DNA from: a virus
Lineage: Duplodnaviria > Heunggongvirae > Uroviricota > Caudoviricetes
Length of the DNA: 64,000 bases
Direction: 5' to 3' (one strand)
Virus record (IMG/VR): IMGVR_UViG_3300032007_003791
Part shown: one piece after another, positions 13,973 to 63,746 of the stretch
How the letters are laid out: each line of letters starts with the position of its first letter
Numbering within the stretch: the stretch's first letter is position 1
The notes under the pieces: model-generated
Told to the model about the DNA's origin: nothing
Seen by the model: the letters and a program-made list of their open reading frames with translations, nothing else
Database searches by the model: none
Program-made: the position numbers and the translations under genes

Positions 13973-13994
13973 TAATTTGATAGAATAAGAAGTT

Positions 13995-14219: not shown

Positions 14220-14223
14220 TATT

Positions 14224-14985: not shown

Positions 14986-14988
14986 TAT

Positions 14989-15381: not shown

Positions 15382-15757
15382 GAAAGTCGTAAGTGAGGAA
15401 CAGCGTTCCGAGGCTTCTGTTTGTGGTGATTGTGAGGAGGCGTACGGTTACTGTTGGCCGGTGCTTGATGGCGCTCCGTATTTCTGTCGTTGTCCGCTTC
15501 ACCCGTATGGTCTCCTATGCGTGTCTAAGGCTGCATGCGGGGTTTTCAGGAAACGTATATCTCCACGTCCGAAGGTGGTGACCGAACGCGTGTCGCCAGG
15601 GATGGAGACTTCCCCTGCTCCGGAGAAGGTTGTTCCGTTGTTCCGCATCGGTGAGCGCCGTCCCTGGAAGACCGTTCCTGTTTCGGAAATCCCCGTAGGT
15701 GGCATCAGTTGGGACGGCACTCCCTCCGTGAAACCGCAAGAGGACACAGAGTGGTAA
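15368..15757 (+). CDS. hypothetical Cys-rich (zinc-ribbon-like) protein
   Basis: 129 aa; CGDCEE...YCWP...FCRCPLHPYGLLC...ACG cysteine pattern. Confidence 0.4.
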   Translation: MARSKKVVSEEQRSEASVCGDCEEAYGYCWPVLDGAPYFCRCPLHPYGLLCVSKAACGVFRKRISPRPKVVTERVSPGMETSPAPEKVVPLFRIGERRPWKTVPVSEIPVGGISWDGTPSVKPQEDTEW

Positions 15758-15788
15758 TTAGATAATTGACATAATAGAGTTAATAGAC

Positions 15789-16424: not shown

Positions 16425-16439
16425 TTTAGGGACCATCCT

Positions 16440-17683
16440 TGAGGGTGGTCTTTTTTGTTGAATGTCCGTTTGTTGGTTGTTGAGGGTGGTTAGGGGTGTT
16501 GTTTTTGTCCGCGAAAGATTCGATGTCCGTTCCTCCTTCCGTGCCAATGGGTTAGCACGGAAGAAAAGAACTGACTGTAGTCCGCGAATGTTTCATAGTC
16601 CGTTTCCCGATAGAGTCCGCGACGTTGATAAGGCGGGTTGGGACGTGCGGCCCGCGGGCCCCTTTTGTGGGTGGGATATATTGAACTCCTGGAGACGGAG
16701 GCCTGAAGTGGCCGGAGTCCCCAGGAGTTTGCGGAAAAAAGGGAAGCGGGCTTTGATTCGGTGTCCCTTGAGCCCTTGGGCTTTCAAGTGCGTTGGGAGG
16801 GCTCACGCGGGGCCCCGTGCAACGCCTCCGGCATCTCTGATGGCGAAGGCGTACGGGGAGGCGTGAGCCCGTGCGGGGAGGGAAAAGCGCGTGGAGGAAT
16901 TGGGTCAAGGTTGTGGGTAGGATGAGGAAAACTGTGTGCGTGTGTGGGGAGGCGAAAAGGGCCCCGTATGTGGGTATATCCATATGCGGTGTAAGGCGGG
17001 AGCCGAAAGGCGCAAAGCCTGGAACAGGTATATGGATATGGGTTTGTGCAGGAGTGGATAGACCCCGTAACCCTTGTGGTGAGGGGTCGGTCCTGGCATT
17101 TTTGAGCACCGGAGTTATGAAAAATATGCCCTTGGGCGTATTTTTTTACGGAGGGCGCAGGAACATGACAGGAATCCACTCCAGGTATACGGGAAAATGC
17201 GGGAGGAAAGGTTGCCGTAAAGGTGTATTGGGGGTTCATTGTTTTTGGTGGTGTTGGGCTTTGGGCGTGTCCGCGAAGGAATCGGTGTCCGTTAAACCTG
17301 CTGGTTCCTGCGAGTGTGTAGGCTATAGAGTGGAGAGAATTGCTGGAGCGGAGCCGGGCGTAGCCCAGCATATCTCCAAGGATAGCAGGATGCAGGTTTT
17401 GAATGTGCGTTTGCGTTTTATATTTTTTTTTGTTTCGGTGCAGGCCGGCCGGCAGGCCGGACTGTTGTGCGGTAGGAAGGGAAGAAAAAACGGTAGGCGA
17501 AAATAGAAAGTTGGGTTCTGTTCTTTAATGGATGCTGTTATTTTTTTCGAAGGGTGGCTGTTTGCGTTGCGTCGAAGGGGTGGAAAAAAGGCGGATGGAA
17601 ATCGTATGCCTGAGCATACGAGACACATCCGCCGTAAAGAAGGGATGCAAACGCAAAGGGCTTTTATGAAATTCGCCCGGGAA
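16440..17683. other. G-skewed gene-free tract 1 (left part; continues at 19326-19760 after the IS605 insertion)
   Basis: No credible ORF; only Gly/Arg/Cys/Trp-rich artefactual frames. Many hairpins and recurring GGGCCCC boxes. Internal direct repeat gtccgcgaa(a/g)ga(t/a)tcg(a/g)tgtccgtt at ~16503 and ~17270. Confidence 0.6.
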
Positions 17684-17766
17684 AACCCACGATTTCAATC
17701 GTGGGATGAAAGGGCGCAAAATTCTTGGAATTTCGGGAAATAATCGTTACATTTGTATGTAACGAA

Positions 17767-18162
17767 ATGAAGAAACTGGCACATCATATCACTTCAGTAG
17801 TGAACATCAGTTACCATATCATCTGGTGTCCAAAGTACCGTCGTAAAGTACTTGTTGATGATGTGGAGCAAAGATTAAAAGAAATACTTCCGCAAATTGC
17901 GGAAGAGATGGGCTGCAGGATTGAGACGATGGAAGTGATGCCAGATCACGTGCGTATATTCATGCGCGGGACGCCAACACTTCCTGTGCATTTGATTGTC
18001 AAGAATCTTAAAGCGGTCAGTGCGAGGATACTACGCTCAGAATTTCCTGAATTGAAACGTCGGATGAATACGATGTGGACCAGGAGTTACTATTGTGAGA
18101 CCGTCGGCAGCATTTCCGAGCAAACCATACAGAAGTACATCGAGAACCAGAAGAATGCTTAG
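17767..18162 (+). CDS. tnpA: IS200-type Y1 (HUH) transposase TnpA, with the HUH motif changed to HVR
   Basis: N-terminus [29 protein letters not shown]; catalytic Tyr region [23 protein letters not shown]; HUH position reads PDHVRIF (cgt codon). Start chosen at MKK (17767) rather than the track start. Confidence 0.8.
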
Positions 18163-19297
18163 GGCAATCAAATACGAACTCCGCCCGAACGCCACACAGC
18201 GCTCGCTCATCAACCGTACCTGCGGATGCTGCCGGTTCGTATACAACAGAGCCCTTGCATTTGCGAAAGAGAACCGTGTCAGCAATTACGACCTTGTGAA
18301 GCGGCTACCCGGTCTTAAGTCCGAGTTCGACTGGCTGAAAGAAGTGCCGTCTCAAGCCTTGCAACAAGCGGTGATAGATCTCGGTAAGGCGTTCAAGAAC
18401 AAGTGGAACGGACACAACGACTGGCCGGTGTTCCACAAAAAAGGTCGGAAGGATTCGTACCGCATCCCGGCCGGTTGCGAGATTGACTACACGCACTATA
18501 AGGTCAAGCTTGCCAAACTGGGGTGGGTCAAGTTTTACAAGGACAAACCTATAGACCAGGCGAAAATACATTCATATACTGTCAGCAGGTCGTCAACCGG
18601 ACGATACTACATATCGCTATTGTACGAAGCGCCTGACCGTTTACCTCTTGCCAACGGGAAGTCCGTCGGTATAGACGTGGGCGTCAAGGAGTTCGCCGTC
18701 TGTTCGGACGGGGTGGTGTTTGAAAACCAAAAGCACTACCGGCGTCAGATGCGGCGTCTTCGCGTCCTACAGAGGACGATGGCTCGGCGTTACGACAAAG
18801 GCAGGGATATTTACGATGCAAACGGGCGGAAAATCGGCGAGAACGGTCCTCAGTCAAGGAACTGGTACAAAGCCAAGGCGGCCGTTGCCAAATGCCATGA
18901 GAAAATCAGGAACCAGCGGAACGACTATCTCAACAAGGTAAGTTCCCTGATTGCTTCTCAATATAGCATCGTCTGTGTCGAAGACCTGAACGTCAAGGGC
19001 ATGGTGAAGAACCGCCATTTGTCAAAAGCAATATCCGACTGCGGCTGGACCGCATTCAAGACGATGCTGAAATACAAGTGCGACACGCTCATCGAGGTGG
19101 ACAGGTTCTTCGCGTCCAGCCAGACGTGCCATTGCTGCGGCTATAAGAACGTTCGTGTCAAAAACCTGTCCGTACGTGACTGGGTCTGTCCCGAATGCGG
19201 GACACACCACGACAGGGACGAAAACGCCGCACAGAACATACTCCGGGAAGGACTGTCTCGGTATTCCATAAGCGCTTCAGTGGAAGCGCTGGGATAG
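18157..19297 (+). CDS. tnpB: TnpB (OrfB; RuvC-like RNA-guided nuclease of IS605)
   Basis: ~380 aa from [12 protein letters not shown]; split RuvC (GIDVGVKEF...; [11 protein letters not shown]), C-terminal zinc finger CHCCGY...CPECG. Overlaps the tnpA 3' end. Confidence 0.9.
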
Positions 19298-31594: not shown

Positions 31595-31894
31595 TATCGT
31601 TGGCTGTTTGATTTGATTGTGAAGGTTGTGTTGGTTCGCTATCTTGCGTGGATTTTACAGCCTGGGAGGCATGCCGACCAATTGGGCTGTAAAATCTTCG
31701 CAAAGAAAAGCGGACCAACTTCTTCCGAGCAAGGGTTCCTGGCGGAACACGACCACAAGGCCCCCTTGTGGGGCCGAAGCCCGTAGCCCGTAGGGCAAGG
31801 GGGCTGCTGCCTGGTGGAGGTTCCGTCAGGAAGCGGAAGCTTGCCCTTGCGAGGAAGAACCGTTGCTTGTTGTATCATACTGAGATTGTCTCAT

Positions 31895-35331: not shown

Positions 35332-35688
35332 TTATTCTTCAGGAATGGTGAGGGTGTCTTCGTCGATGATGTGGATTTCGTTTGCGATAGCTTCGACTAC
35401 CGAGCGACGGTTTCCTTCGGCGTCAGTGTAGTTCAGGTTTCTGAGTCGTCCGACGATTTCGATTTTGGTTCCTTTTTTGACATTGAGGATGTCTTCTTCG
35501 GAAATCTTTTTCCCTTCGTAGGCGATGACGTTGATCCAGAAAGTCTCGAGGATGTTTTCATTGTTCCGGTTTATGTAAGCGTATTCGGTTACGACCGAAC
35601 AGCGGATGTATTTTTTCCCTTGGAAATCTTTTACGTCGGATGTTCCGACGATGCCACGGAGGTGGACTTTGTTTAAGAATTCAAGCAT
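35332..35688 (-). CDS. short SSB-like OB-fold protein (paralog of 46442..46783)
   Basis: 118 aa; MLEFLNKVHLRGIVG aligns with MYEFINIVEIQGIVG of the paralog. Preceded by repeat A copy 1. Confidence 0.55.
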   Translation of the reverse strand: MLEFLNKVHLRGIVGTSDVKDFQGKKYIRCSVVTEYAYINRNNENILETFWINVIAYEGKKISEEDILNVKKGTKIEIVGRLRNLNYTDAEGNRRSVVEAIANEIHIIDEDTLTIPEE

Positions 35689-35734
35689 TGCTTTCTATTT
35701 TATAATTAAGGTTGTTATTTCTGTTTTTAGATTT

Positions 35735-35968
35735 TTTTTGTTGTAGCTTCGCGTGATTTCCCCACGCGGACGCTTGCGTCCATAAGTGGGTGAAATCTAA
35801 GCAAGAAGGCACAACAAAAAATTCCCTTTCTGCAAGGGTTTTCCATAAAACACGACCACGAGGCTCCTTGGGGGCCGAAGCCCGCAGCCCGCAGGGCAAG
35901 GGGGCTGCTGCCTGGTGGAGGTTTTTGGAAAACGAGCGTAGCGAGCTCGCCACTTGCGGAAAGGGAAT
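35735..35968 (-). repeat. intergenic repeat family A, copy 1 (terminator + promoter + structured leader cassette)
   Basis: ~235 bp matching 46982-47213 and 54993-55229. Hairpins cgcgtg/cacgcg, ggacgc-tt-gcgtcc, ccctt-tctgc-aaggg flanked by A- and T-tracts, ggctcc/ggggcc, gagctc palindrome. Confidence 0.7.
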
Positions 35969-36006
35969 ACGTTTCAGCGATGAACTCCTGATGGGTTCTG
36001 TTTCAG

Positions 36007-36399: not shown

Positions 36400-36785
36400 A
36401 TTTCTACGAGTTCCTTATCATATTCTTTAAGAAACTCATCAAGGTTGAGGTATTTTCTGACGGGCATCATCTTGCGGTCGTCAGGGGTGAAGAAGGAGGG
36501 ATAGAGGGCGAACCCCCTGCGCAGGTATTCCCTTGTCAGGGCCTCCTCCGGGACAGGCGAATTGTCCGGTTCGATGATGAGGTGTCTTCCGTGTGAACCC
36601 GGGGTCGCGTTGCAGATGGCGACATTGAACCCCGGCCGGAACTCGTTCACCTGGATATAGGCGACGTTCTTCTCGTCGGAGTAGTAGCCGTAGGCGTTTT
36701 CCTTGTTGCTGGAGAGGAAGACGCGGAAGTCCATGTTGCGGAGTGTTTCCGCAATCCTCTCAAGGGTTTGTCTGGGTGTTTCCAT
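36393..36785 (-). CDS. hypothetical protein
   Basis: 130 aa ORF. Confidence 0.4.
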   Translation of the reverse strand: METPRQTLERIAETLRNMDFRVFLSSNKENAYGYYSDEKNVAYIQVNEFRPGFNVAICNATPGSHGRHLIIEPDNSPVPEEALTREYLRRGFALYPSFFTPDDRKMMPVRKYLNLDEFLKEYDKELVEIW

Positions 36786-36866
36786 TTCTTTTCTGAAGGG
36801 AGGGCAGCCGTGAGGGCAAGGAGCCCGAAAATAATGAGTAAAAGTGTTGTCATGGTTGATGGTGGC

Positions 36867-37148
36867 TTACAGATAAACCTTAGCATGGAGGTGGATCTTG
36901 TCGCCACGGGGATCGACACGTGTGGTGTCGATATAGAAGGTGGCACGGGCGAGGGCGTCGAGCCAGCCTTCGCGGCCGAGGCGTTCTTCGGTCTCCTGGC
37001 GGGTGATGGTGAGCTTTTCGCCGCTCTTGCCGATGAGGTGGTATTCGGTCTTGGAGGCGGCGTAGTCCACCTCATGGATGTCGTTGAGCGAGTAGCCTCG
37101 GCTTGCGAGGTATTCGCGATCTTTCTTGCTGAGTTTGAATTTAGCCAT
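36867..37148 (-). CDS. hypothetical protein
   Basis: 93 aa ORF. Confidence 0.4.
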   Translation of the reverse strand: MAKFKLSKKDREYLASRGYSLNDIHEVDYAASKTEYHLIGKSGEKLTITRQETEERLGREGWLDALARATFYIDTTRVDPRGDKIHLHAKVYL

Positions 37149-37227
37149 GGTATTGTCTGATTTTGATTTTCTGTTTTTTCGGGCCGGCCGGGCCTTGTGC
37201 CCGGCCGGCTTATTCTTAAAAGTGTGA

Positions 37228-39072
37228 TTATGCTGTGTAAGAGCGTCGTACGGTTTTCATTACGATATTTTTCACGACAGTCGAGATTCCTTTGACAAGG
37301 TTCTGGATGCTTGCCATATCAATCCATGTATCATACATGGCTGCAAGGTGGTCCTTGGTCAAGTTGCTGTCGACTGAGATTCCGATTACTTCCATTCCCT
37401 GTTGTTTTGCTTCATCCACGGCTTTCCGTACATTCGATAACGGACCGTTAGGATAACCGTCGGAGATAACGAGAAGGACTGCCTTGCTTTTGCTTTTCTG
37501 CCGGACACGGCTGACAACTTCCTGGATAGCTTCGGCTGTCGGAGTGCCTGATATGGCCTCGATGCTTCCAAGGGTGTACTTATCGTAAGGTTTGCCCCAT
37601 TCGCGGTAAGCGAAAAGCGCATTCAGGTTATAGTCCGTGTATCCGTAGATATTCAGTTCCACATTGGGGATATTACCGACAGCCTCGTTGATGAGGATTG
37701 CGGCCTGGCGTGCGAGCACGAATTTGCGACCATTCATTGACCCGCTTTCATCAATGAGAATGCTGAGGTTCACCCTGTCAGGGCGTGTCACTTCCTTGCG
37801 GCAATAGACGTTCTTGTTTCCCTGTACGGCTTCGGCAATCTTGTTGCCGTCAAGCATACCTCGTTTGAGGCCTGTTTGAACGGAAGTGATTTCCGCTCCG
37901 TGGGTAATAAGGGACCTTTGTACGGTGGGAATGAATTTCTTGACTGCCCGCAGGTCGGACATGTAAATAGCCTTGTTGGGCTCTTTCTTGAGGATAATGG
38001 CATTTTTGCCTATTTCCAGTTGACCGTCCATTTCTTTTGCAAGAAGGTGGTCGTTTTCTTTCAGGTCTTTGGACATGTCATCCTCGGAGATTGTGGTATC
38101 TGCGGACTTGATATTCTTTTCGATTGCATCAAGAATCTTTTCAAGGATTTCTTCCAACTCTTCATCACTGAGTTTGCGGCTGCTGCTTCCTTTTCCGTTG
38201 CCGGAACCGGCTTGCTTACCACTGCCTTGGTCGTCGCCTTCTTCGCCTTCGCCTTCGCCTTGGCCCTGACCCTCGTCGTCTTCGTCCATGTTGTCTTCCG
38301 CGTACTGCTTGAGCAGTTCGTAGATTTTCTTGGCCGTTTCGTAGGTCTCTTCGGTGTTCTCCGGATACGGGGTGAGGATTTCCCGTGTTTCGAGAAGGAG
38401 GTCCGCAAAGTCGTGGACTTCTTCCTGGGTGAGGGTTGCCGGATAACGAACGAGTTTCAGGATGGCGTTGAACGCCTTGGTGAGGTCGTTCTGGTTTTGA
38501 GGCATGTCGTCCTGTACCTTACCGAAATAGAAGTATTTCGTTGCCTTCAGGAAGTTTGCAAGTCCGGGGTTCTCTTCGCCGGTATGGCGTTCAATCATTT
38601 CGTCTTCCACTACATTGTGAATGGCGTGCAAAATCCGTGACTTATCATTTTGTCCGATAGTGAAGTCGGTGTACAAGAGGTGTGAACCTTCGTGCACGGC
38701 AGCCCCTATGAAAACATCGAGTCTCTTGCCAAGTGGAAGCGACTCGTCGTCGAACACCTTGGTTGCCACCCAGAGGGTGTGGCTGTCGGTTGCGTTCCGT
38801 TCGGCGTCCACCTTCACGGTTACCTTGTACGGGTGTCCCATGGAAATGACCATATTACGGGCAATGCTGAGCGCATTCTTGTAAAGGTCCCTGGTGGTGG
38901 CGGGGTTCAGGATTATCGACGAATAGGCGGAATCTTCCGGAAGGGTGTCTTCCCAGCCAAGGCGGTCGGTGGTGCGGATACGCACGTAGGTCTCACCGTC
39001 CCTTTCAAGCCAGTCCTTTTCGAGAAGGGCAACCTTCTCTTCAATGGTCATATTTTTGTAGTTCTGTTTCAT
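37228..39072 (-). CDS. VWA-domain protein (CobT/NorD-like partner of the MoxR ATPase)
   Basis: 614 aa; C-terminal VWA with MIDAS DESGSM; central acidic/Gly-rich linker; N-terminal HEGSH (HExxH-like). Confidence 0.75.
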   Translation of the reverse strand: MKQNYKNMTIEEKVALLEKDWLERDGETYVRIRTTDRLGWEDTLPEDSAYSSIILNPATTRDLYKNALSIARNMVISMGHPYKVTVKVDAERNATDSHTLWVATKVFDDESLPLGKRLDVFIGAAVHEGSHLLYTDFTIGQNDKSRILHAIHNVVEDEMIERHTGEENPGLANFLKATKYFYFGKVQDDMPQNQNDLTKAFNAILKLVRYPATLTQEEVHDFADLLLETREILTPYPENTEETYETAKKIYELLKQYAEDNMDEDDEGQGQGEGEGEEGDDQGSGKQAGSGNGKGSSSRKLSDEELEEILEKILDAIEKNIKSADTTISEDDMSKDLKENDHLLAKEMDGQLEIGKNAIILKKEPNKAIYMSDLRAVKKFIPTVQRSLITHGAEITSVQTGLKRGMLDGNKIAEAVQGNKNVYCRKEVTRPDRVNLSILIDESGSMNGRKFVLARQAAILINEAVGNIPNVELNIYGYTDYNLNALFAYREWGKPYDKYTLGSIEAISGTPTAEAIQEVVSRVRQKSKSKAVLLVISDGYPNGPLSNVRKAVDEAKQQGMEVIGISVDSNLTKDHLAAMYDTWIDMASIQNLVKGISTVVKNIVMKTVRRSYTA

Positions 39073-39075
39073 GGT

Positions 39076-40287
39076 TTATCGTGCTAAAATCATATTGTGA
39101 ACGATAGCGCGTTCGCCTTCGATGTCCGTCCCTTCGAAGAGTTCGAGGTAGATTGTCTCCATTGCGTATCTTGCGGTGCGTCCGCATTCTACATATCTTG
39201 CGCAGCGCATCGTCTCACGCGTGGTTACCGTATTGGAAATGTTCCCGTCGGTGTAATTCTTGCGAATCTTGTTCGCAACGCTGACGATATTCACTGCGTC
39301 CGAGTTCATCAGGTGCGGGTACTTGCTCATTAGCAGGTTTATTTCTTCCTGTTCCGGAAGATACTCGAGTGTCCTTTCAAGGAACCTGTCCCGAAGGGCC
39401 TTGTCGAGCGGGTTGGTGAGGTACTCGGGTCCTTCGTTGATTGTCGCTATGAAGCGGCATTTGGGGTGGACCTTGATTTCTCTCTGACCCTTGCTGGTTG
39501 CCAGTTCGCAGAACATCGTCTTTCGCCAGTCCAGAATGGACATGAGGCTTGTTGCAGCGTCCTTGGACGCTCTGTTGAGTTCGTCGAGGACGATAATGCA
39601 TTCGGTCTGGATTTGTTTTGCGAAGCGTGCCTGGTCGTAGACTGACTCTCCGTTCTCGATACGGTGTACACCCTGCATCTGAGCCACGGCGTCGAACATA
39701 GTCGCCATGTCGTAGATATAGACTGGTACATTGAAGACGGTGCCAAGTAAAGTAGCCAGTGTCGTCTTACCTGTTCCGGCGGGGCCTTTAAGGAGAATGT
39801 TTTCTCCACAGGTAAGGTCCATTATCGTGTCTAACCACTTGTCGTGGTTGATGTAGAACCCGTCCTTGTCGATTGTCGGCGTTGCGAAGTTTGGATTTGC
39901 CTGAATTTTGTCAATCAGGCGGTTTCCTGTTGACTTTACTTTCGTCTGCTGGCCGTCGGCGTTGAAGTTGTTGTCCACTTTGTATTTGAGCCACTCATTT
40001 TTCATTTCGTCGGATGGGCTATTATTCAGAGGTACCTGCTGGGTGGTTTCAACCACCTTTACGTCGTCCCCGATTGCGTAGAACGGCTGGGTGCCTGTTG
40101 TGGCTCTTAACTCACAGACGTCAGAGACGAATATCGTTCCGAGGGGGAAATTCTTCCGAATATCGGAAGGTCCCTGGCAGTTGAGGTCAGGGTTGATGGG
40201 CTGTCCGGCGCTTGTTTTCTGATTCGGAAGAGGACGGAAGCGGACTTTCTTGGTTTCGTCTTGGACGGATTTGAAAAAGTAGAACAT
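39076..40287 (-). CDS. MoxR/CbbQ-family AAA+ ATPase
   Basis: 403 aa; Walker A LLKGPAGTGKTT. Separated from the VWA gene by a 4-nt gap (operon). Confidence 0.8.
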   Translation of the reverse strand: MFYFFKSVQDETKKVRFRPLPNQKTSAGQPINPDLNCQGPSDIRKNFPLGTIFVSDVCELRATTGTQPFYAIGDDVKVVETTQQVPLNNSPSDEMKNEWLKYKVDNNFNADGQQTKVKSTGNRLIDKIQANPNFATPTIDKDGFYINHDKWLDTIMDLTCGENILLKGPAGTGKTTLATLLGTVFNVPVYIYDMATMFDAVAQMQGVHRIENGESVYDQARFAKQIQTECIIVLDELNRASKDAATSLMSILDWRKTMFCELATSKGQREIKVHPKCRFIATINEGPEYLTNPLDKALRDRFLERTLEYLPEQEEINLLMSKYPHLMNSDAVNIVSVANKIRKNYTDGNISNTVTTRETMRCARYVECGRTARYAMETIYLELFEGTDIEGERAIVHNMILAR

Positions 40288-40289
40288 AG

Positions 40290-41477
40290 TGTCTTTTTAT
40301 TTATTTGTCGTTTGTTTCTTGGGTTGGGGCGTTAACTTTGTGTAGGAATTTTCCCACCATGTAGAGAGCTCCGCGAACGGAGTGGTGGGGAAATTTCGGA
40401 ACAATAGTAACACCCTAACCCTCCAATGCGGCAAGCACGAAGGGGAAAAAAAATGACCACAAGGACCACTCGTGGTCCGCAGCCCGCAAGGGGCGCCTTC
40501 CACTCGTGGAAGGCGATGGTCCGTTATTTTTTCCACGAGTGCGCGTGCATTGGAAGGGAAAAGAAATTGCCGTCAGGCTTTTTGTAGGCGTGCTGTTTTG
40601 TATCGGTGGTCACGGTTTATGCGGTACGGGCGGTATGGGCGTGGTTCAGTGGTTAGGATAGGGAATATAGTTTGGTGTGAAATTGGGATTGGCGGATATT
40701 TGTCCGAATTTGGTTGAATTGTCCGTTTACAGGTTGCTCTGGGTGGTTTGGGGCTAATCCGGGGCGCTCTCTCCAGGCTCTGAGCGCCCCAGGTCCGGGA
40801 ATGAATCGGGGTCGTGTCGTGATTTTGGATTCTTCCAAAATCACGATGTTGTTCGAACCCTTCCGGGGGAGGGGCCCTGGAAGGGAAGGACTGTGGCAGG
40901 GTGCTTTTTAGTTCTGTTGCAGGTGTTTTAATGAGCCTGTCCGTTTTACTGCGCATGACGGAATCCGCTGGGCCCCTTGGAAACCGTCTTGAGGCTCATA
41001 GCGTCAAGACGGCAAGGGAAAGCGGATAAGTGGGTGGAAGGGCGTTCAGGGCCCCCCGCGTAGCATTTCCTGAATAGGGCCTGTTCAGGAAATGTGGGAG
41101 CAAGGGGAAGGAACGCCGTGGGTCTCGTGCGTTGGCAAGGCACCCCGCAGGGCCCCTGTTCCCGATAGGGTAGGGGCCGCCAGTTGTATCCTGTAAGGTA
41201 AACTGGCTGCTCCGTTCAGGGAAAGGCGGGGTGCCGTGTGGGGGTTTCTTCTCTTTCTGGGCCCCATGTGCGAAAAGACGATCACGGACGCCTGAAGGGG
41301 CGGACGGGATCGTGGATTTGTGGGTGGATTGGGGAATGAAAGAGAGGAATGGAAGAATGTCCTTTTCTTGGGAAAAAGGGTGGGTGTGGGGTGGTGGTAC
41401 CGTACCACTCGCATGAGTGGTGCGGTACCACCGCTTAGGTGTCCAATAAAAAAGGGAGGTCCTGTATGGAACTTCCC
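40290..41477. other. G-skewed gene-free tract 2 (includes repeat family B copy 1)
   Basis: 1.2 kb without a credible ORF. GGGCCCC boxes at ~40870, 40970, 41050, 41150, 41262. Hairpins at 40815-40845, 40985-41012, 41062-41092. G-tract gggtgggtgtggggtgg followed by an 18-bp hairpin at 41388-41428. Confidence 0.6.
40360..40578. repeat. intergenic repeat family B, copy 1
   Basis: Aligns with 63520-63746: gggaaatttcggaacaa...ccaatgc.g.aagcacga.gg..aaaaaatgacc.caagg.cc...cgcagcccg..aggggcgc...cgagtgcgc...ttggaaggg..aaga.attgccgt.aggc. Closing stem ccaatgc/gcattgg. Confidence 0.65.
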
Positions 41478-42227
41478 TTATAAATTTTTTTTACTTTTTG
41501 ATTTTTTCCGTGTGCTGGTGGACTTGAAAGAATTATATATTTCAAGGCTTGCTTTTTGTTTTGTATACAATTCAACTTGATGAATAATATCTAACTTGAT
41601 AACATCCCAATCTTTTCCAAGTAGACATTTGGGGTTTGGCTCTAAATCAGCTTTTGAAAAATCAACAAGAGCATCTAAAATCTTATCTTCCTCGTGTACC
41701 CATGGCTGCCATTTTTTGTGAAGAGACATTAATTTTTCAAACGGATAAATTTCCAATAGTTTATCAATATCCCACCAATCTTTTTTACGTCCACCGTTAT
41801 TGATAGCTTCCATTTTCATGGCTGCTATCTGATTGACTGATTCAAATCTTATTCCCTCTATGAGCTCTGGACCAGAAATAAATTGGTCAGTATACATAAG
41901 GTCAAGTTTGACAGCATTTTCTTTATTCAGGCCGACATAGTACATTCTACCAAAACCGACAATCCCGGATTTATCCGGACTATCAAAATATGGAAACATT
42001 CTTTGCAATTCATTTTCCAATTTTACAAAGTCTATGCTTCCGTATTCAGCATCCGTAAATAAATCAATATCATCTGAACAACGATGACCAAATCTTAAGC
42101 TAAGATTGGTACCTCCAACAAGGTTAAAGTTATTAAAAACCGGATTTTTCATCAAGGCATTAAGTGTATTGATAAGAACCGGTTTTACAGTTTCATAATG
42201 AAGAAGTTCGTCCTTAATATTTGTCAT
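41478..42227 (-). CDS. AbiEii/AbiGii-family nucleotidyltransferase toxin (DUF1814)
   Basis: 249 aa; N-terminal NTase motif LVGGTNLSLRFGHRCSDDIDLF; AT-rich island. Confidence 0.75.
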   Translation of the reverse strand: MTNIKDELLHYETVKPVLINTLNALMKNPVFNNFNLVGGTNLSLRFGHRCSDDIDLFTDAEYGSIDFVKLENELQRMFPYFDSPDKSGIVGFGRMYYVGLNKENAVKLDLMYTDQFISGPELIEGIRFESVNQIAAMKMEAINNGGRKKDWWDIDKLLEIYPFEKLMSLHKKWQPWVHEEDKILDALVDFSKADLEPNPKCLLGKDWDVIKLDIIHQVELYTKQKASLEIYNSFKSTSTRKKSKSKKNL

Positions 42228-42651
42228 AAAATTTGTTTATAGAATTGATTTCTTCAGCGTTTCCTCTTTCTCTAACCCTGTTTATAATAAAATCCTTATT
42301 TAAAGTCCAATCCAAAGAATTAATATCAATGTCCCAAAATACAACTTTCCTAATATTGGGATATGTTTGGGAAGGAACTTTAATCTGTTTTTTTTGTTGG
42401 AGAAGATAATAAGTTTGTATTATCGCGAAGAAACCATGCTCAAAATGTAATGCATTATCAAGTTTTAATGAAAGAGGAATTGAAATTAGTCTTTTTCCCT
42501 TGATAATTGCATTTAAAGTTTGGTAATGCTCTCCAATATTGGCTGCAAGTTCCCGTTGTGTCATATTGCCATTTTTTAGGCAAGACACAATAATTTTTCC
42601 TGGAGCAATACCTTTATATGCATTTATCTTATTCACGTTGTAAAGGTACAA
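42214..42651 (-). CDS. HTH (XRE-like) putative antitoxin/regulator paired with AbiEii
   Basis: 145 aa; HTH MTQRELAANIGEHYQTLNAIIKGKR; 14-nt overlap with the toxin gene. Confidence 0.55.
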   Translation of the reverse strand: MYLYNVNKINAYKGIAPGKIIVSCLKNGNMTQRELAANIGEHYQTLNAIIKGKRLISIPLSLKLDNALHFEHGFFAIIQTYYLLQQKKQIKVPSQTYPNIRKVVFWDIDINSLDWTLNKDFIINRVRERGNAEEINSINKFYDKY

Positions 42652-42757
42652 AAAAACATAGAAATAAACAAATTTGTTTATTATACAGTTTCCAGAAGGG
42701 TGGTCCCGTTTTCGGGTCCGCCCTTCTGGAAACTGTAAATTGGAAATATAGCTGTTT

Positions 42758-43321
42758 TTAGCTGTTCACGAGTTCATAGACATCAACGAACCAGGGGCAG
42801 TCGCCCTGGGTGATGGTTTCTTCGTCTTTAGGATATTTCCCGAAGACGGAAATTTTTACGACATAGCGGCCACCTTCAAGGAAGGTGACGTTTTTCTCGT
42901 TTTCGAGGTCTTCGAAGAGTTCGTCATTGTCCGGATCGTAGAAGGCATAGTTGTTTTTGCCTACGGCTTTCTTTTTCCAGTCATTGAGGACGGTTTCCGG
43001 TCCGCGCATCGAGGCGTCGTAGCAGTCGCTGTAGTTGTTGATATAGGCGACATGCTTATACTGGGCTTTGATTGCCTTGACTTCTTTGATAGTATGAAGT
43101 CCCCAGTAGGGTGTTCGTTCCGGGACCATGCTGCGGGTGACCATCTGTCCTTTCTTGCCGATGGCATAGAAGATGGGATAGAGGGCGTACTCCATGCACG
43201 AATGGCTTCCTTCGAAGCACTTGTATCCTCCGAAGTATCCTTCGTAGGTGCGTTCCCCAAGAGTGACCTGTACTCTCTGGCCGTATTGCAGATTGAGGTT
43301 GATGAATTCTAATGCGTCCAT
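42758..43321 (-). CDS. hypothetical protein
   Basis: 187 aa ORF. Confidence 0.45.
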   Translation of the reverse strand: MDALEFINLNLQYGQRVQVTLGERTYEGYFGGYKCFEGSHSCMEYALYPIFYAIGKKGQMVTRSMVPERTPYWGLHTIKEVKAIKAQYKHVAYINNYSDCYDASMRGPETVLNDWKKKAVGKNNYAFYDPDNDELFEDLENEKNVTFLEGGRYVVKISVFGKYPKDEETITQGDCPWFVDVYELVNS

Positions 43322-44862
43322 GTGCGTTGTGTTTCAGTTAGGTTTGACATTCTGTCGAGGAAGCGGTAGCTGGCCGCCTCTGCCAGGTGATGTGTCCGTA
43401 TATTGTCGGAACCGTCCAGGTCGGCGATGGTCCTTGCGATCTTGAGGATGCGGCTGTAACTCCGTGCGGAGAGGCCGAGCTGGTTGATGAGTTTTTCCAT
43501 GAGGTCCTTGCAGTCCTCGTCAAGGTTGGCGTAGCGTTCGAGGTCCTTGGCGGTCATCTGGTCGTTGACCTTGAAAGCCTCGTTTTCAAAGCGTTTCTTC
43601 TGGATTTCTCGTGCGGCGACAACCCGCTTGGCGACGGTTGCTGCGTTGTCATAGGTGACGGCATTCTTTTCTATGACCGTATCGGGTACGGGGTGAACCC
43701 ATATCTGGACGGCGATGGAATCGAAGACCGGTCCGCTGATGCGGCTGAGGTAAGCCGCCCTCTGGCCGGGCGTACAGGTGCACCGGTCGCCTTCACCGTA
43801 GTATCCGCACGGGCACGGGTTGCTGGAAGCGACGAGCTGGAAATTGGCCGGGAATTCAACTACTCCCTTGAGGCGGCTGATGACTACTTTCTTGTCTTCC
43901 ATGGGACCCCGAAGGGCATCTAGCTTGTTTTTTGGAATGTCACAGAATTCGTCAAGATAGAGTACTCCGTTGTTTGCAAGTGACACCTCCCCGGGAAGGA
44001 TATGGGTTGAGGAACCGCCCCCGAGAAGGGCTGCAAAGGAGCACGAAATGTGCGGAGAGCGGAACGGTCTGCGATAGGCGCCGTAACAGGCGTTGTAACC
44101 CCGTCCGGATGCGGAGTAGATTGCAGCGTTCACGAGCGCCTCTTCCCTGGTCATCGGCGGAAGGATTTCCGTGAATGCTTTTGCGAGCGAGGTTTTGCCG
44201 CTTCCGGGTACGCCCATGATGAGGACATGGTGTCCGCCTGCAGCAGCGATTTCGAGGGCCCGCTTGGCGCTTTCCTGACCGATGATGGAATCCCAGACGG
44301 AGTCGTCGTTTGCCTTGTTTTCTTTGAATTCCATCTCTGCAATGGTCGGAAGGCTGGACTGGTCCTTGATGACCTGAACGGCTTCGGCAAGGGCCGCTGG
44401 GGCATAGACGGGCGCATCTCCCACGAAGGCTTTGACCTCTTCGGCATCGGCGAATGGAATGATGCACTTATAGCCGTTTCCAACGGCTGTCATGGCGGCC
44501 TGCAGGCTGCCGGGGACGCTCCTGATGCTACCGTCAAGAGCCAGCTCGCCGAAGATGAGCCACTGGTCGAGGTCGGATACCTGAAGGTCTCCTTGTTCTG
44601 CAAGGAGCGAAATGGCGAAGGGGAGGTCGTATCCGCTGCCACTCTTGTTGAGGTCTGCCGGAGCCAGGTTGATGATGATTTTCTTACCGGTGATATGGTG
44701 TCCGGTTGCCATTAAGGCTGTTATGGTACGCAGCAGGCTTTCTTTCACGGCTTCATCGGCGAGGCCGACTATATGAATTCCGATGCCGTTTGATATTTGA
44801 CATTCGATCGTGACGGGAATGGCGTCGATTCCGATGAGCTTAATTGTGTTGGTGGTAATCAT
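43309..44862 (-). CDS. comM: YifB/ComM-family Mg-chelatase-like AAA ATPase
   Basis: 517 aa; GQESAKRALEIAAAGGHHVLIMGVPGSGKTSLAKA, C-terminal ChlI-like region. Confidence 0.85.
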   Translation of the reverse strand: MITTNTIKLIGIDAIPVTIECQISNGIGIHIVGLADEAVKESLLRTITALMATGHHITGKKIIINLAPADLNKSGSGYDLPFAISLLAEQGDLQVSDLDQWLIFGELALDGSIRSVPGSLQAAMTAVGNGYKCIIPFADAEEVKAFVGDAPVYAPAALAEAVQVIKDQSSLPTIAEMEFKENKANDDSVWDSIIGQESAKRALEIAAAGGHHVLIMGVPGSGKTSLAKAFTEILPPMTREEALVNAAIYSASGRGYNACYGAYRRPFRSPHISCSFAALLGGGSSTHILPGEVSLANNGVLYLDEFCDIPKNKLDALRGPMEDKKVVISRLKGVVEFPANFQLVASSNPCPCGYYGEGDRCTCTPGQRAAYLSRISGPVFDSIAVQIWVHPVPDTVIEKNAVTYDNAATVAKRVVAAREIQKKRFENEAFKVNDQMTAKDLERYANLDEDCKDLMEKLINQLGLSARSYSRILKIARTIADLDGSDNIRTHHLAEAASYRFLDRMSNLTETQRTWTH

Positions 44863-46441: not shown

Positions 46442-46783
46442 TCAGATTTCTTGTGGTTGTTTTTCGAGGATACTCAGTTCGGTTGCGAGCACGTCGTAGA
46501 TTTGAACGACGTTTTCGTCTTCGTCGATGGCGCGGCATTGGCGGAGCCTTCCTTTGGCGTGGATCCAGTCGTCTTTTTGAGGGATGACAAGTTTGTCTTT
46601 ATTTTCTTTGGTCCACACGACGATGAGGAACCATGTCGTGTCGATGCAGATGGTTTTGTCGGAACGGAGGTGTGTGTAATTGGTTGCGACGCTCAGGGTG
46701 ATTTTGATTGCGCCGTTCACTTTTTGGACATTCGCTTGTCCGACGATACCCTGGATTTCGACGATGTTGATGAATTCGTACAT
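46442..46783 (-). CDS. short SSB-like OB-fold protein (paralog of 35332..35688)
   Basis: Start trimmed to MYEFINIVEIQGIVG; homologous to the SSB-like protein at 35332. Confidence 0.5.
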   Translation of the reverse strand: MYEFINIVEIQGIVGQANVQKVNGAIKITLSVATNYTHLRSDKTICIDTTWFLIVVWTKENKDKLVIPQKDDWIHAKGRLRQCRAIDEDENVVQIYDVLATELSILEKQPQEI

Positions 46784-46981
46784 GTTATATGTGTTATGTT
46801 GATTATGTCTGTTATTGACCAGGGTCTTTTTTCCTGGCGATATGGTATTTGGCCTTGGGGATTTTCTCAATGGCTTTTGTCAGGACGCGGTATGCGTCGC
46901 TTTCGTGAAAGAATGCTCCGAACTGGTGCATCTCCTGTTGTTTTTCATTTTCAATGATCCACATGTTGATAAGAATTGTTT

Positions 46982-47213
46982 TTGTGTTGTACCTTCGCGT
47001 GATTTCACCACGTGGACGCTCGCGTCCATAAGTGGATGAAATCTAAGCAAGAAGGCACTACACAAAATCCCTTTCTGCAAGGGTTTTTCAGGTAATTACG
47101 ACCACGAGGCCCCCTTGTGGGGCCGAAGCCCTCGCCAGGGGCGAGGGGGCTACTGCCTGGTGGAGAATTCCTGAAAAAAGAGCTCAACGAGCTCACCACT
47201 TGCGGAAAGGGAA
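46982..47213 (-). repeat. intergenic repeat family A, copy 2
   Basis: Near-identical blocks to copies 1 and 3 (cgcgtgatttc.ccacg.g, ggacgc..gcgtcc, ataagtgg.tgaaatctaagcaagaaggcac, ccctttctgcaagggtttt, ctgcctggtggag, gagctcaacgagctc, cacttgcggaaaggga). Confidence 0.7.
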
Positions 47214-47589
47214 CCGGTACAAAGTTGACAGAAAGGGGATAGAAGGGTTGTTATTGGAATGAAGAAGCCCGTTCCCACCGGAAGGCGGGGACGGGCTATA
47301 GAGGAAAAGAATTCTCCGATGAGGTTTCAAAAAGGAGGCCCGGTGAGGGGTCTCCTGAAGGTGATTATTTCTTTTTGATTGTCATTTCCTTAATGGCTTT
47401 TTTCCATTTCAGGAAGAGTCTTTGGGCTTTTGATTTTCTTTTCTTTCTTTCGAAGTTTAGCGGTAATTCTGGAAAGATAAGGTCAGGATTGAGCACCATG
47501 TCCTTGAGCCTTTGTTGGATTAAACTCCATTCAAACTTGCCATGTAGCATGTTTATCGATTCGAAGTTATCGATAGACTTAAAATAGAG

Positions 47590-48803: not shown

Positions 48804-49512
48804 ACGTTATTCATCTGACACAAAGTCAAGGTCAATGCTTTTTCTGTGTCCTATCTGGAGGGACAGGGCGGTTCCCCCGACCAGAAGGTAGTCTTTTAGT
48901 GCTGGTTCGGAGCTCAGGCGTTTCAGCAGTTCCAACGTGTAGGGTTCTACTGTGGTATAATGGAGCATTTCAGGTCTTTGTCTTTTAGATTGAAAGCAAA
49001 TTTCACGAAGTTTTTATCTACATCGGACATTTGTGGGATTTGTCGGATGAGTTTGATAATCTTTCTTGGTCCTCCATAGAGCTGCAGCAGGGCGTATCAG
49101 TCGTTCCTGTTTCCGAGTTCAATGACCCTTCGGGTGACAGTTATGGAAATGTTGTTCCATTGGTTTTCAGTGAATCCGTCAGTGTCGTATTCCCAGAGGA
49201 GTTTCTTTGGGATGACTTGATGTGGATATGTTTTCCAATCGTTGAAGAGCATGACAGATTGTCGTATTATTTGTTGCAAATATAGTGTTTCTTGTCCAAT
49301 TCAAAAAATGTGCTGGTTGTTCCTACTGTCATATCAGTAATAAAAAGTGCGACCTTTTTGCACTTTATCTTCAAAAATTTCCGAGATAAAGTACGTTTAG
49401 CTCGCACTTTTTTAGGATAATAAGTGGGAATCCTCCCTGGTTTTAACCGGGAGATGAAAGCGTCTTTGATTTTTGAGAGGTGATATATTTCACCACGGTC
49501 TTTTCCGATACG

Positions 49513-49537
49513 GATGCTCCCTGTCTTTAGACGGGAG
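49513..49537 (-). repeat. solo copy of the IscB-element LE hairpin sequence
   Basis: atgctccctgtctttagacgggagt is identical over 25 nt to 4945-4969; flanking sequence differs. Lies directly after the stop of ORF 49557..49853. Confidence 0.7.
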
Positions 49538-49556
49538 TATATCACGTCTGTGTAGT

Positions 49557-54352: not shown

Positions 54353-54982
54353 TTACATCTCCATCCAGCGGTACTTCCGGAAGGTGACGGTTTCAATTTC
54401 CGGGTGGTCTTTCAGGATATTGGAAATGGTGTTGGAGATGTAGGCTGTTTCTTTTTTTGATTCTGCATTGAAACCGTCAGTTTTCAGTGATTCGACGTTT
54501 TCGTGGTTGATGACGGGATAGTTGATAAATCGGCCGGGCATTTCATGGTAGCATTTTTCCATTTCCTCGTTTGTGGTGAAGGAAAAATCTATTGTATTAC
54601 CCCTGCGGCGGAATCCGACGAAGACGAAGTCACGTTCATCGACGTCATTCAGTGTGTATCCTGGATAGGGTTCGTTATTGTCGCAGCACAGTTCCGAGCC
54701 GTACATGTATCCTGTCTGTCCGTCAGGGAGTTTTACTTCCGAGAGGAGTTTCGTTCCGTCTGTACGGCAAGAGTGCCAGAGACAGGTTGCGTCATTTTTT
54801 TCGATTGCGGGGTCCCAGCCAAAGTTCCATGTCAGGTGTTCAAAAAAGTCCTGAATCATTTCATCGTCCAGAACTTTTTTGCCTGGGTATTTCTGCTGGC
54901 AAAATTTGTCCAGTATTGTCTGTTCTCCTTCTTTGGTGTTCGTGTTGGCGTATGCCAGGATGGGTATAATCGTTCCAGCCAT
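54353..54982 (-). CDS. hypothetical protein
   Basis: Start trimmed to MAGTIIPILAY; the longer track ORF runs into repeat A copy 3. Confidence 0.45.
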   Translation of the reverse strand: MAGTIIPILAYANTNTKEGEQTILDKFCQQKYPGKKVLDDEMIQDFFEHLTWNFGWDPAIEKNDATCLWHSCRTDGTKLLSEVKLPDGQTGYMYGSELCCDNNEPYPGYTLNDVDERDFVFVGFRRRGNTIDFSFTTNEEMEKCYHEMPGRFINYPVINHENVESLKTDGFNAESKKETAYISNTISNILKDHPEIETVTFRKYRWMEM

Positions 54983-54992
54983 GATTAAATGT

Positions 54993-55229
54993 TTTTTGTT
55001 GTACCTTCGCGTGATTTCCCCACGCGTGGAAGCTTGCTTCCCAAAGTGGGTGAAATCTAAGCAAGAAGGCACTACAAAAAATCCCTTTCTGCAAGGGTTT
55101 TTCAGGTAATTACGACCACGAGGCCCCCTTTGGGGCCGAAGCCCTCGCCACCTTGGGGCGAGGGGGCTACTGCCTGGTGGAGAATTCCTGAAAAAAGAGC
55201 TCAACGAGCTCACCACTTGCGGAAAGGGA
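54993..55229 (-). repeat. intergenic repeat family A, copy 3
   Basis: Same conserved blocks as copies 1 and 2. The ggaCgc..gcGtcc hairpin is replaced by ggaAgc-tt-gcTtcc, a compensatory double change. Confidence 0.7.
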
Positions 55230-55252
55230 TACCGATGCAGCGATAGCCCTTG

Positions 55253-62765: not shown

Positions 62766-63485
62766 TTAAATGATGTCTTTTAGGAATATTTCAATATCGA
62801 AGTAGTCTTTTTCATTGGCGAGTTGAAAGAAGATTTTCCTTATCTTTTTCAAGGCTTTATCCATTATTTGTCTCGTCCTTTCTTTTGTCAGTCCGAAATA
62901 AAATCCTATATCTTCGAAGCATTCCGGCATGATGTGTCTTTCTTCGTTTCCGAAATAGTACCATTCGATGATAGCTGCTTCCCGGTCAGAAAGGAAATAG
63001 TGAATGTATCGGAGAAGTTGTTCTTTGTCTACGGATTGTTCCGTCTCTTGCGGAAACATTTCTTCATCAAACTGTATGAAAGAGCATTTGTTCTCGATGA
63101 TACTGAGTTTGCTTGCAGCTCCTACTTGTCCCAGCATCTTGAAATACATACCGTTTTGAAAATTCGCCTGACGGTAATCGTCTTCATCTTGAAGGGAGAG
63201 GATGTGCTTCGCGAGAGCCGAAAGACAAATCTGATAGTACTCTTCCTTTCTATTGCCAAGGCCGTAGTAGTCACAATAGATTTCGGAAATATACTTTGCA
63301 TACGGAAGGTTGTTCTCCGCAAGGAGGTTCTGCAACCTTTTTCTTTCTTCCCCTTGGGCACTTTGAAGACGCTTGAGGAGTTTGCGGTTCCTGGACCGCA
63401 TTCCCCTCAGTCCGTATTTTTCTTTGTAGCCCGGTACAAGGGATGAGTAATAAACCCAATCGGTTTTGACAACAGTTGTAGGCAT
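62766..63485 (-). CDS. sigma-70-family (ECF-like) RNA polymerase sigma factor
   Basis: Start trimmed to MPTTVVKTD; C-terminal region-4-like HTH ERTRQIMDKALKKIRK. Confidence 0.5.
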   Translation of the reverse strand: MPTTVVKTDWVYYSSLVPGYKEKYGLRGMRSRNRKLLKRLQSAQGEERKRLQNLLAENNLPYAKYISEIYCDYYGLGNRKEEYYQICLSALAKHILSLQDEDDYRQANFQNGMYFKMLGQVGAASKLSIIENKCSFIQFDEEMFPQETEQSVDKEQLLRYIHYFLSDREAAIIEWYYFGNEERHIMPECFEDIGFYFGLTKERTRQIMDKALKKIRKIFFQLANEKDYFDIEIFLKDII

Positions 63486-63519
63486 AGATGCAGTAACTTT
63501 GTAAAGAAATTTACCCCTG

Positions 63520-63746
63520 CGCAGTGAGCTTGCGAACGAAGTCTGGGGGAAATTTCGGAACAAAATGTACTGCATCGGACTTCCAATGCAGTAAGCACGA
63601 CGGAAAGAAAAAATGACCGCAAGGCCCCTTGTGGGGCCGCAGCCCGTCAGGGGCGCAGGACACGGCTCTGCCGTGGACGGCGACGGCCCGTTATTTTGTT
63701 TCCGAGTGCGCAGCGCGTTGGAAGGGGGAAGACATTGCCGTTAGGC
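63520..63746. repeat. intergenic repeat family B, copy 2
   Basis: See copy 1 (40360-40578). The closing stem is partly compensated (ccaatgcag.../...gcgcgttgg). Confidence 0.65.

Follow-up and report, generated by a model that had tools for sequence, protein, structure and literature searches.

Repeated folded elements with Bacteroidota-type promoter boxes as probable single-stranded DNA promoters or priming sites of a conjugative element

The 64,000-nt stretch of the IMG/VR virus record IMGVR_UViG_3300032007_003791 analyzed in this study (hereafter called the window) contains six copies of a repeated non-coding element, which belong to two families, A and B. These elements are probably single-stranded DNA (ssDNA) promoters and/or priming elements of a conjugative element from Bacteroidota. 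All six copies lie on the + strand, each occupying the gap between two minus-strand genes, and each is composed of a long imperfect hairpin of ~90 nt (domain 1) and a multibranch structure of ~135-150 nt with a long closing stem (domain 2). The base of domain 1 is located 1-46 nt from the start codon of the left-hand gene in six out of six cases. Embedded in domain 1 is a promoter box of the type used by Bacteroidota, and related elements with the same box are found across the phylum.

Family B consists of two + strand copies (B1 and B2) of about 250 nt each, with a mean column identity of 83% in an alignment of ~300 columns. An earlier note on this DNA had described two aligned copies with a series of conserved boxes, and the alignment bears this out. 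The copies stand as described except for their left start: B really begins ~40 nt earlier, at 40321 and 63487, and the additional sequence is part of domain 1, a hairpin domain absent from that description. The 18-mer GGGGAAATTTCGGAACAA occurs exactly twice in the 64-kb window, while two or more matches were obtained in none of 100 shuffles. Compared to shuffled sequences, the predicted + strand fold has a z-score of -6.3 for B1 and of -3.1 for B2.

Folding with DNA parameters, together with the helix list, places domain 1 of B1 at 40321..40421. Its outer stem, GGGTTGGGG.GTTA at 40321-40334 paired with TAAC.CCCTAACCC at 40408-40421, covaries across 13 copies. The -7 promoter box TAACTTTG, which conforms to TAnnTTTG, is situated on the 5′ arm (40333..40340) and is followed just 3′ of it by a 3x3 internal loop (40342-44 with 40398-400), an inner stem of 15 bp (40345-40359 with 40383-40397) and an apical hairpin (40369-40382). 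In B2, the domain-1 hairpin extends over 63487..63576, with an outer stem formed by GATGCAGTA (63487-63495) and TACTGCATC (63568-63576), the box TAACTTTG at 63494-63501 and an inner stem at 63506-63517 with 63545-63556. The letters of this outer stem are wholly unlike those of B1, with complementarity kept. On the + strand of the window TAACTTTG is found at 40333 and 63494 only.

Domain 2 of B1 (40422..40554) is closed by TCCAATGC at 40422-40429 pairing with GCATTGGA at 40547-40554, and domain 2 of B2 (63580..63724) by CTTCCAATGC at 63580-63589 pairing with GCGTTGGAAG at 63715-63724. The long-range closing stem, which had previously been suggested to be partly compensated in the second copy, is present in both; an A-to-G change in B2 leads to a T.G wobble that is tolerated on the + strand only. 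Further inside, B1 contains a GCAC/GTGC stem (40435-38 with 40539-42), a variant of the family core consisting of an A/T stem plus GACCA/TGGTC (40444-40459 with 40517-40534) and three hairpins (40463-40478, 40483-40492, and 40494-40515). The core-variant stem of B2 is found at 63601-63619 with 63684-63704 and its hairpins at 63623-63638, 63643-63652, and 63654-63682. The first of the latter is the internal GGCCCC/GGGGCC hairpin already recognized before; its counterpart in B1 is GGACCA/TGGTCC, which amounts to two compensated base pairs. As seen in the two-copy alignment, domain 2 of B1 is followed by a conserved 3′ tail, AGGGAAAAGAAATTGCCGTCAGGC (40555..40578), with the small hairpin GCC-GTCA-GGC.

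Both B copies directly precede minus-strand genes, as had been claimed, and these genes could be identified using Pfam. Next to B1 is the gene of an AAA_5/MoxR-like ATPase (39076..40287, minus strand), whose start codon is 33 nt away from the base of domain 1 and after which the gene of a vWA protein follows (37228-39072, minus strand). B2 adjoins the gene of a sigma-70 region-4 protein (62766..63485, minus strand; Sigma70_r4, E = 1.9e-8), the ATG of which, at 63485, is 1 nt away from the base of domain 1.

The number of copies is not limited to two. A repeat search yielded four further copies of the same kind of element, forming family A, which has a core stretch in common with B. All of them are located on the + strand: A1 at 31630..31868 (two-domain element; repeat search, fold and 44.6 bits with a covariance model), A2 at 35733..35973, directly upstream of an SSB gene (35332-35688, minus), A3 at 46980..47217, upstream of a small open reading frame (ORF) and a weak SSB-like gene (46442-46783, minus), and A4 at 54992..55236, upstream of a gene for a protein of 209 aa (54353-54982, minus). 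Using nhmmer, a profile of B recognized the A copies with E = 2e-5 to 1.5e-3 as well as related elements of locus L083 (8e-11) and locus L082 (1.5e-7 and 3e-5), with the L082 copies containing the canonical core described below. B is one subtype of a larger family that includes A in the same window. The covariance model in question, R1, represents the canonical core; in addition to A1 it detected A2 with E = 0.003 and A3 and A4 weakly. A T-rich run at the left edge of family A was considered as the box at one point and dropped; the real box is TACCTTCG, 10 nt further in.

Bacteroidota sigma-A promoters are reportedly made up of a -33 element TTTG and a -7 element TAnnTTTG. In 19 domain-1 hairpins, from the window and from related elements, the 5′ arm holds TAnCTT(T/C)G at the same place. 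The 8-13 nt upstream of this box are wholly different between copies, yet they are always complementary to the segment that comes after the inner hairpin. RNAalifold analysis of 13 domain-1 hairpins, B1 and B2 among them, detected a stem of 8 bp next to the box, seven of whose eight pairs show compensatory double changes; this set comprised the cleaner 13 copies, and a MAFFT alignment of 20 domain-1 hairpins gave no RNAalifold consensus. The share of paired cells in the 8-bp stem was 89%, compared to 64% in shuffles (a value of 89% was reached by none of 500) and 33-51% in slid controls, and its covariation score was 0.65 versus 0.23 in shuffles. Pairing of each stem with its own partner was more favorable than with a foreign one (-10.3 vs. 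-6.1 kcal/mol), the own partner being the better one in all 19 copies. Homologs with compensatory changes, whose existence the earlier note had named as a check on its proposal, are available in large numbers, so that this check speaks for a genuine element.

A second form of the element, which we call canonical, is distinguished by a core in the shape of an apical hairpin, AAATACTACC-N(3-20)-GGTGGAGATTT, closed by CAAGG/CCTTG. Scanning genome and metagenome collections for this core yielded at least 240 loci; the following figures refer to the matches listed, among which there are 208 unique copies. Nearly all hits belong to Bacteroidota, including Bacteroides, Prevotella, Flavobacterium, Chryseobacterium, Sphingobacterium, Cytophagales, Chitinophagaceae, and others. 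Of the 208 copies, 144 have an exact TAnnTTTG on the strand of the core, 40-80 nt 3′ of it, and only five have one on the other strand; the box consensus, TAnCTTTGC, is that of the window. TTG is enriched at -24/-25 from the box, which corresponds to the usual -33 spacing, and is found there in about half of the copies. Pairing also links the 26 nt behind the box to the 5′ arm that precedes the core: the own arm gives -14.5 and a foreign arm -8.3 kcal/mol, with the own arm binding better in 93% (p = 7e-24, 92 distinct arm sequences). The box itself is paired in only 33-57% of the folds, its flanks in 70-89%. With respect to genes, the nearest ORF on the 5′ (left) side is antisense in 166 and sense in 38 cases at a median distance of 126 nt, and the coding strand of the neighboring genes is almost devoid of a box of its own. 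The products of the neighboring antisense ORFs comprise DUF6943, SSB, LPD11, ArdA, ArdC, RadC, DUF932, and a DnaJ-domain protein. Such a set of genes is typical of plasmid leading regions (PMC11541004). The B and A copies share the characteristic trait of the canonical family, namely a TAnCTTTG box that lies on the strand of the element within an intrastrand helix and precedes a gene in antisense orientation.

Apart from this trait the two forms differ in topology. The canonical type is a single large hairpin that has the conserved core at its apex and the box in its 3′ arm; in the window type, a hairpin of its own, placed between the gene and domain 2, carries the box on the 5′ arm. In 11 of 17 window-type copies domain 1 meets domain 2 without any linker. 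If the two domains are modeled as stacked helices, the 3′ closing arm of domain 2 contributes a TTG that comes to lie 23-25 nt from the box in nine of the 17 copies, including all four A copies. Under this model the window type resembles a circularly permuted canonical hairpin, with a loop capping the downstream duplex and with the two promoter halves (-33 and -7) distributed over two stacked helices. For the canonical geometry, with the box on the 3′ arm and the 5′ arm as template, transcription would leave the stem at its base and continue into the gene, in line with the stem-loop design reported for Frpo.

Both forms also agree in the strand that folds. For the 17 window-type copies, the strand antisense to the genes folds better in every case, by a mean of -6.6 kcal/mol (p = 3e-4, DNA parameters), and of 144 canonical copies among the matches listed 90% do so, by a mean of -4.3 kcal/mol (p = 3.5e-22). 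The inner stems of the canonical form display compensatory changes at 12 of 24 pairs and include near-invariant T.G wobbles, with UG in 28/28 and 25/28 sequences at two pairs.

Several canonical copies deserve separate mention. At loci L089, L107, L124, L243, and L284, two canonical elements occur in tandem at a distance of ~363 nt, both of them complete with box and arms, and the permuted window type could have evolved from tandems of this kind. Complete canonical elements are also present on plasmids of 2.7-4.9 kb, which suggests an additional role as single-strand origin. One of them is the Elizabethkingia RepL plasmid NZ_CP115635 (2.7 kb, locus L329), whose element at 1470-1660 has no annotated gene on its 5′ side, the only annotated gene being on the other side. 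Marivirga pFTRAC01 (L330) carries an element at ~4480-4880 on the minus strand, which precedes the mobC-relaxase operon in antisense orientation. In the B. ovatus plasmid NZ_CP041396 (L332) four near-identical elements lie within 6 kb (87.3-93.0 kb), each of them upstream of a small minus-strand operon.

The window itself is organized like a conjugative element, the origin of transfer (oriT) separating the transfer genes from an establishment region. According to Pfam, the minus-strand genes at its left encode topoisomerase III, IscB (with a HEARO RNA), a TraG-type coupling protein, NrdD, a MobA/VirD2 relaxase (10852-12282, minus; Relaxase), and MobC (12685-13095, minus; MobC_2). To the right of the mob genes follow, in this order, an AT-rich iteron region at 13.1-13.5 kb, a short + strand operon with a ParA-like gene, and ~45 kb of co-oriented minus-strand genes, among them those for two SSBs, C5 and N6 methylases, PcfJ, DprA, ComM, RNase H, the sigma-factor-like protein, and the MoxR/vWA pair. 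The region 13100-13550 between mobC (minus strand) and the ParA-like operon (+ strand), which is AT-rich and contains TTATAA-type iterons (13370-13500) and inverted repeats (13160-13290), is a candidate origin of transfer and/or replication. The relaxase, the coupling protein, MobC, and PcfJ speak against a large phage genome, the first guess for this stretch. Homologs of the MoxR-like ATPase with 58-97% identity are found on Bacteroidota conjugative contigs together with TraO, CTnDOT_TraJ, TraG, PcfJ, SSB, and methylase genes; a MoxR protein scan of the genome contig collection revealed no relatives. In the related contigs, elements of the family precede the ATPase gene as well as other genes, invariably in antisense orientation, and the slot before the ATPase gene is occupied by a B-like copy in some contigs and by an A-like copy in others.

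Taken together, the following mechanism can be envisaged. During conjugation the + strand, which is the template of the co-oriented minus-strand genes, would enter the recipient as ssDNA. Each element would fold on this strand; the domain-1 duplex would display TAnCTTTG, the -7 box, in its 5′ arm, immediately followed by a small internal loop and then by ~20 bp of duplex. Domain 2, directly adjacent, is probably stacked onto domain 1, by which a -33-like TTG would be placed at normal spacing from the box in the A-type copies. Host RNA polymerase might then start on the 3′ arm of domain 1, reading the + strand 3′ to 5′, round the loop, cross the 5′ arm and enter the left-hand gene. The outcome would be an early mRNA, possibly also a primer for complementary-strand synthesis, before the DNA becomes double-stranded. 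Once it is double-stranded, the -33/-7 boxes of canonical and window copies would point away from the gene served and into the 3′ end of the upstream gene.

A number of points weigh against this interpretation. The whole case for an ssDNA promoter or priming element is computational. The + strand would be the transferred one judging from the orientation of the relaxase only, as it is the template of the relaxase operon and the situation is likened to that of F and RP4. What speaks for it is that in four of five annotated contexts, i.e., the window, Marivirga pFTRAC01, a CTnDOT-like circle with the element upstream of a PcfK/PcfJ/DUF3873 operon, and an NBU-like insert in the same record, the element is on the template strand of the mob genes; the sole exception is the B. 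ovatus plasmid NZ_CP041396, where the four elements are on the mobC/relaxase coding strand. This strand relation was checked on five annotated replicons only, because a tblastn search for relaxases in the at least 240 canonical loci found none. In addition, several + strand genes (13554-16424) separate the co-oriented block from the presumed oriT. A polymerase that transcribes toward and around a hairpin loop is known for the ssoA primer RNA, but not for an mRNA. With regard to the stacking model, the distance between TTG and box in the B copies would be 17 and 14 nt, which is too close for a normal promoter. Finally, the R1 covariance model misses B1 and B2 even when used unfiltered. The core of B reads ATGACCA..TGGTCCGTTAT in place of the canonical core, and since R1 does not detect the two copies, B is a divergent core variant, joined to the family only via the nhmmer links to the A and L082/L083 copies and via its architecture.

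Other explanations have to be considered as well. It appears plausible, though rather unlikely, that the elements are mere priming sites, that is, single-strand origins of the sso/ssi kind, in which the hairpin promoter gives rise to a short primer RNA and perhaps stalls synthesis without any mRNA being made. Complete canonical elements on tiny plasmids without a gene to serve, such as the 2.7-kb RepL plasmid of Elizabethkingia, would fit such a role, and so would the direction of window-type transcription, which heads into the hairpin loop like that of the ssoA primer RNA. In pMV158/pLS1 the transcription of this primer RNA does run into a hairpin loop. A further precedent is the F plasmid promoter ssp2, which acts as a roadblock to conversion into double-stranded DNA (bioRxiv 10.64898/2026.01.09.698686) and which by analogy offers a possible role for the large domain 2. 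A site used for priming only could, however, be placed in any gap, yet the elements keep to 1-46 nt from a start codon in the six window copies and to a median of 126 nt in the canonical ones among the matches listed, with a preference for positions upstream of the early genes SSB, ArdA, and ArdC. Moreover, priming and promoter roles are compatible with each other, as Frpo of the F plasmid does both. A gene for a + strand non-coding RNA, one of the possibilities raised in the earlier note, we regard as improbable. The box would then be an ordinary double-stranded promoter for a structured RNA of ~230 nt (inner hairpin plus domain 2) that acts in antisense or trans regulation. Such an RNA would account for a good -7 box at the 5′ edge that points into the structure, accompanied in B1 by TTTG 18 nt upstream of the box, for the strong predicted RNA fold, and for the end of B1, a small hairpin followed by TTTTT. 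Nevertheless, an RNA begun at the box would miss the 5′ half of the stem, and therefore the helix enclosing the box, which covaries including the 8-13 nt upstream, would not be part of it. In the canonical form the box is even 3′ of the conserved structure, which consequently would not be transcribed from it; besides, there is no terminator in B2 or the A copies and no match to an Rfam family.

A signal in a leader or intergenic RNA of the minus strand, affecting processing, stability or translation of a polycistronic mRNA, is a very improbable alternative. It would be in keeping with the location of the element between co-oriented genes and directly before start codons, and a hairpin of one strand will largely form on the other one too. 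The asymmetry of folding disfavors it, since the minus strand folds worse in 17/17 window-type copies and in 90% of the canonical copies among the matches listed. The T.G pairs work only on the strand antisense to the genes, the invariant T.G wobbles becoming A.C mismatches in a minus-strand RNA, and the conservation of a -7 (often also -33) box at a fixed position of the opposite strand would be left unexplained. Of the structured cis-regulatory element that had been proposed at the outset, its being structured, its long-range stem with compensation and its cis-acting relation to the adjacent minus-strand genes can be retained. Still less probable is that the copies represent a miniature mobile element or its terminal repeat, dispersed over intergenic gaps and without any function for the host element. 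The presence of several copies per replicon in two subtypes and the occurrence of A-like and B-like versions in the same slot upstream of MoxR orthologs could be taken in its favor. Against it speak, by position and structure-preserving divergence only, the constant strand and gene-relative position and the fact that the copies diverge in a way that preserves structure; a host-type promoter box at a fixed place and the phylum-wide presence on plasmids and integrative elements beside the same gene classes do not fit it either. An ssDNA promoter and/or priming element is thus the reading we prefer for families A and B.

The earlier note had also assumed a diverged relative of B at 16538 and a connection to G-rich tracts, neither of which could be upheld. 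A search with nhmmer (--max, E up to 200) found nothing at 16538, and the local alignment of 36 nt there was equalled or beaten by 8 of 300 shuffles; beside B2 there is no G-rich tract. The stretches 40586-41477 and 16437-18094 are G-rich and without convincing genes, the former coming after B1, with no equivalent for B2. In 40586-41477 and 17372-18094 the + strand fold is more favorable than that of the minus strand by 14-18 kcal/mol, whereas 16437-16783 has no such asymmetry. Neither repeats nor a promoter box, an Rfam match, or a similar sequence in the window or the fetched loci were found for the G-rich stretches.

Further observations concern an IscB and a TnpB gene in the window. The IscB gene (RRXRR + HNH) is located at 3353-4657 on the minus strand, with its HEARO/omega RNA at 4746-4977 (Rfam, 112.6 bits). 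The 5′ stem of the latter (4946-4970) recurs as an exact 25-nt copy at 49514-49538 and as a 76% copy at 49430-49454, both far from IscB genes. A TnpB gene (18095-19297, + strand; OrfB_IS605 plus a Cas12f-like TNB domain) marks the left edge of the minus-strand block, right after the first G-rich tract.

It is by means of ssDNA promoters that plasmids entering a cell can express genes for anti-defence and establishment while still single-stranded. To our knowledge, such promoters have been demonstrated experimentally only for a few enterobacterial plasmids, and outside this group they have been sought mainly by similarity to Frpo or by boxes of E. coli type. We would give an even chance to a wider interpretation, in which the elements form a phylum-wide family of ssDNA promoters/origins common to conjugative plasmids, integrative conjugative elements, mobilizable elements, and small plasmids of Bacteroidota. 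Its members would make use of the -33/-7 boxes peculiar to this phylum and of a near-invariant apical hairpin recruiting a specific factor (such as RNA polymerase/sigma-A, primase or SSB), and would come in two topologies related by circular permutation. The promoter of the window type would be divided between two stacked helices, with the polymerase rounding the loop into the gene, and the family would mark the transferred strand and early anti-defence genes in Bacteroidota of gut and environmental origin. If the proposed reading of the family, which is defined by sequence and structure, is correct, the ssDNA-promoter strategy would be a general one, rebuilt here on a different promoter grammar. 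It would also provide a simple computational marker of the transferred strand and of early/anti-defence gene sets in mobile elements of gut Bacteroidales, with DUF6943, LPD11, and the MoxR/vWA pair as candidate early/anti-defence genes, as well as parts with which gene expression could be controlled while DNA is being conjugated into Bacteroides. A mechanistic question would in that case arise about the conserved hairpin of the core and about a promoter that is permuted and possibly split.

A blastn search with B1 against 20,395 E. coli chromosome and plasmid records from complete genomes, Frpo-bearing plasmids included, yielded no match, and the same applies to the A and B copies against PLSDB and to window positions 36500-44000 against phages. 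The comparison with Rfam, which the earlier note had called for, was carried out with Rfam 15: at the gathering threshold only the HEARO RNA (4746-4977) passes in the whole window, and nothing, STAXI included, was found around B1 at E up to 10 or in eight canonical loci at E up to 0.01, so that no family matches the element. Pattern scans of viral contigs with GGGAAATTTCGGAACAA and GACCRCRAGG..CCGMAGCCC were discarded, as all 76 loci were chance or coding matches. Nothing relevant on ssDNA promoters in Bacteroides/Bacteroidota or on the core sequence was present in the literature searched, and a leading-region survey that catalogs Frpo homologs does not mention Bacteroidota.

Among the known systems, the Frpo/ssi class comprises Frpo1/Frpo2 of F, which correspond to ssp, and ssi of ColIb-P9 (Masai and Arai, 1997; PMC9849209; PMC11541004). 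The two F elements are repeats with 92% identity that precede ssb and further genes of the leading region (PMC9849209; PMC11541004). Like the family described here, this class consists of a non-coding repeat of ~250-330 nt with several copies per element, on the template strand of co-oriented genes beside the transfer genes and directly upstream of ssb and anti-restriction genes. In both, a long imperfect hairpin rebuilds the boxes of a host promoter as a mismatched duplex; in Frpo, the stem-loop rebuilds -10 and -35. The boxes themselves are different, being the Bacteroidota -33 TTG and -7 TAnnTTTG in the present family and TTGACA and TATAAT in Frpo/ssi. Moreover, the present family has an additional multibranch or apical core domain, conserved phylum-wide in its canonical form, and two topologies, with the box of the window type on the 5′ arm of a separate hairpin; its function is a prediction.

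Candidate structured motifs near conjugation genes, some of them perhaps acting as ssDNA (e.g., STAXI), have reportedly been described in two surveys. With such STAXI-type motifs the present family shares a conserved structure in mobile elements of Bacteroidales near SSB, topoisomerase, and anti-restriction genes and a suspected role at the DNA level, but its architecture differs in having a promoter box within a hairpin plus a core. Conventional Bacteroidota sigma-A promoters have the same -7 consensus, here TAnCTTTGC, with TTG at the expected spacing in about half of the canonical copies among the matches listed. In contrast to them, however, the boxes of the present family are on the strand opposite the adjoining gene and within covarying intrastrand helices, and as double-stranded promoters they would fire away from the gene.

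The single-strand origins (ssoA, ssoU, ssoT, and ssoW, as well as sso1 of ICEBs1) are likewise strand-specific, highly structured non-coding regions, in which host RNA polymerase recognizes a hairpin-formed promoter, as proposed here. As with the canonical form, they are found on very small plasmids, and ssoA resembles the proposed window type in being transcribed toward the hairpin loop. They differ in having been described from Firmicutes plasmids, being defined by the RS_B and CS-6 motifs, in not being placed systematically before genes, and in yielding a primer of ~20 nt instead of an mRNA. All in all, the functional kind of element is known, whereas novelty appears to lie in the family as such, in its promoter grammar and conserved core, and in the permuted form.

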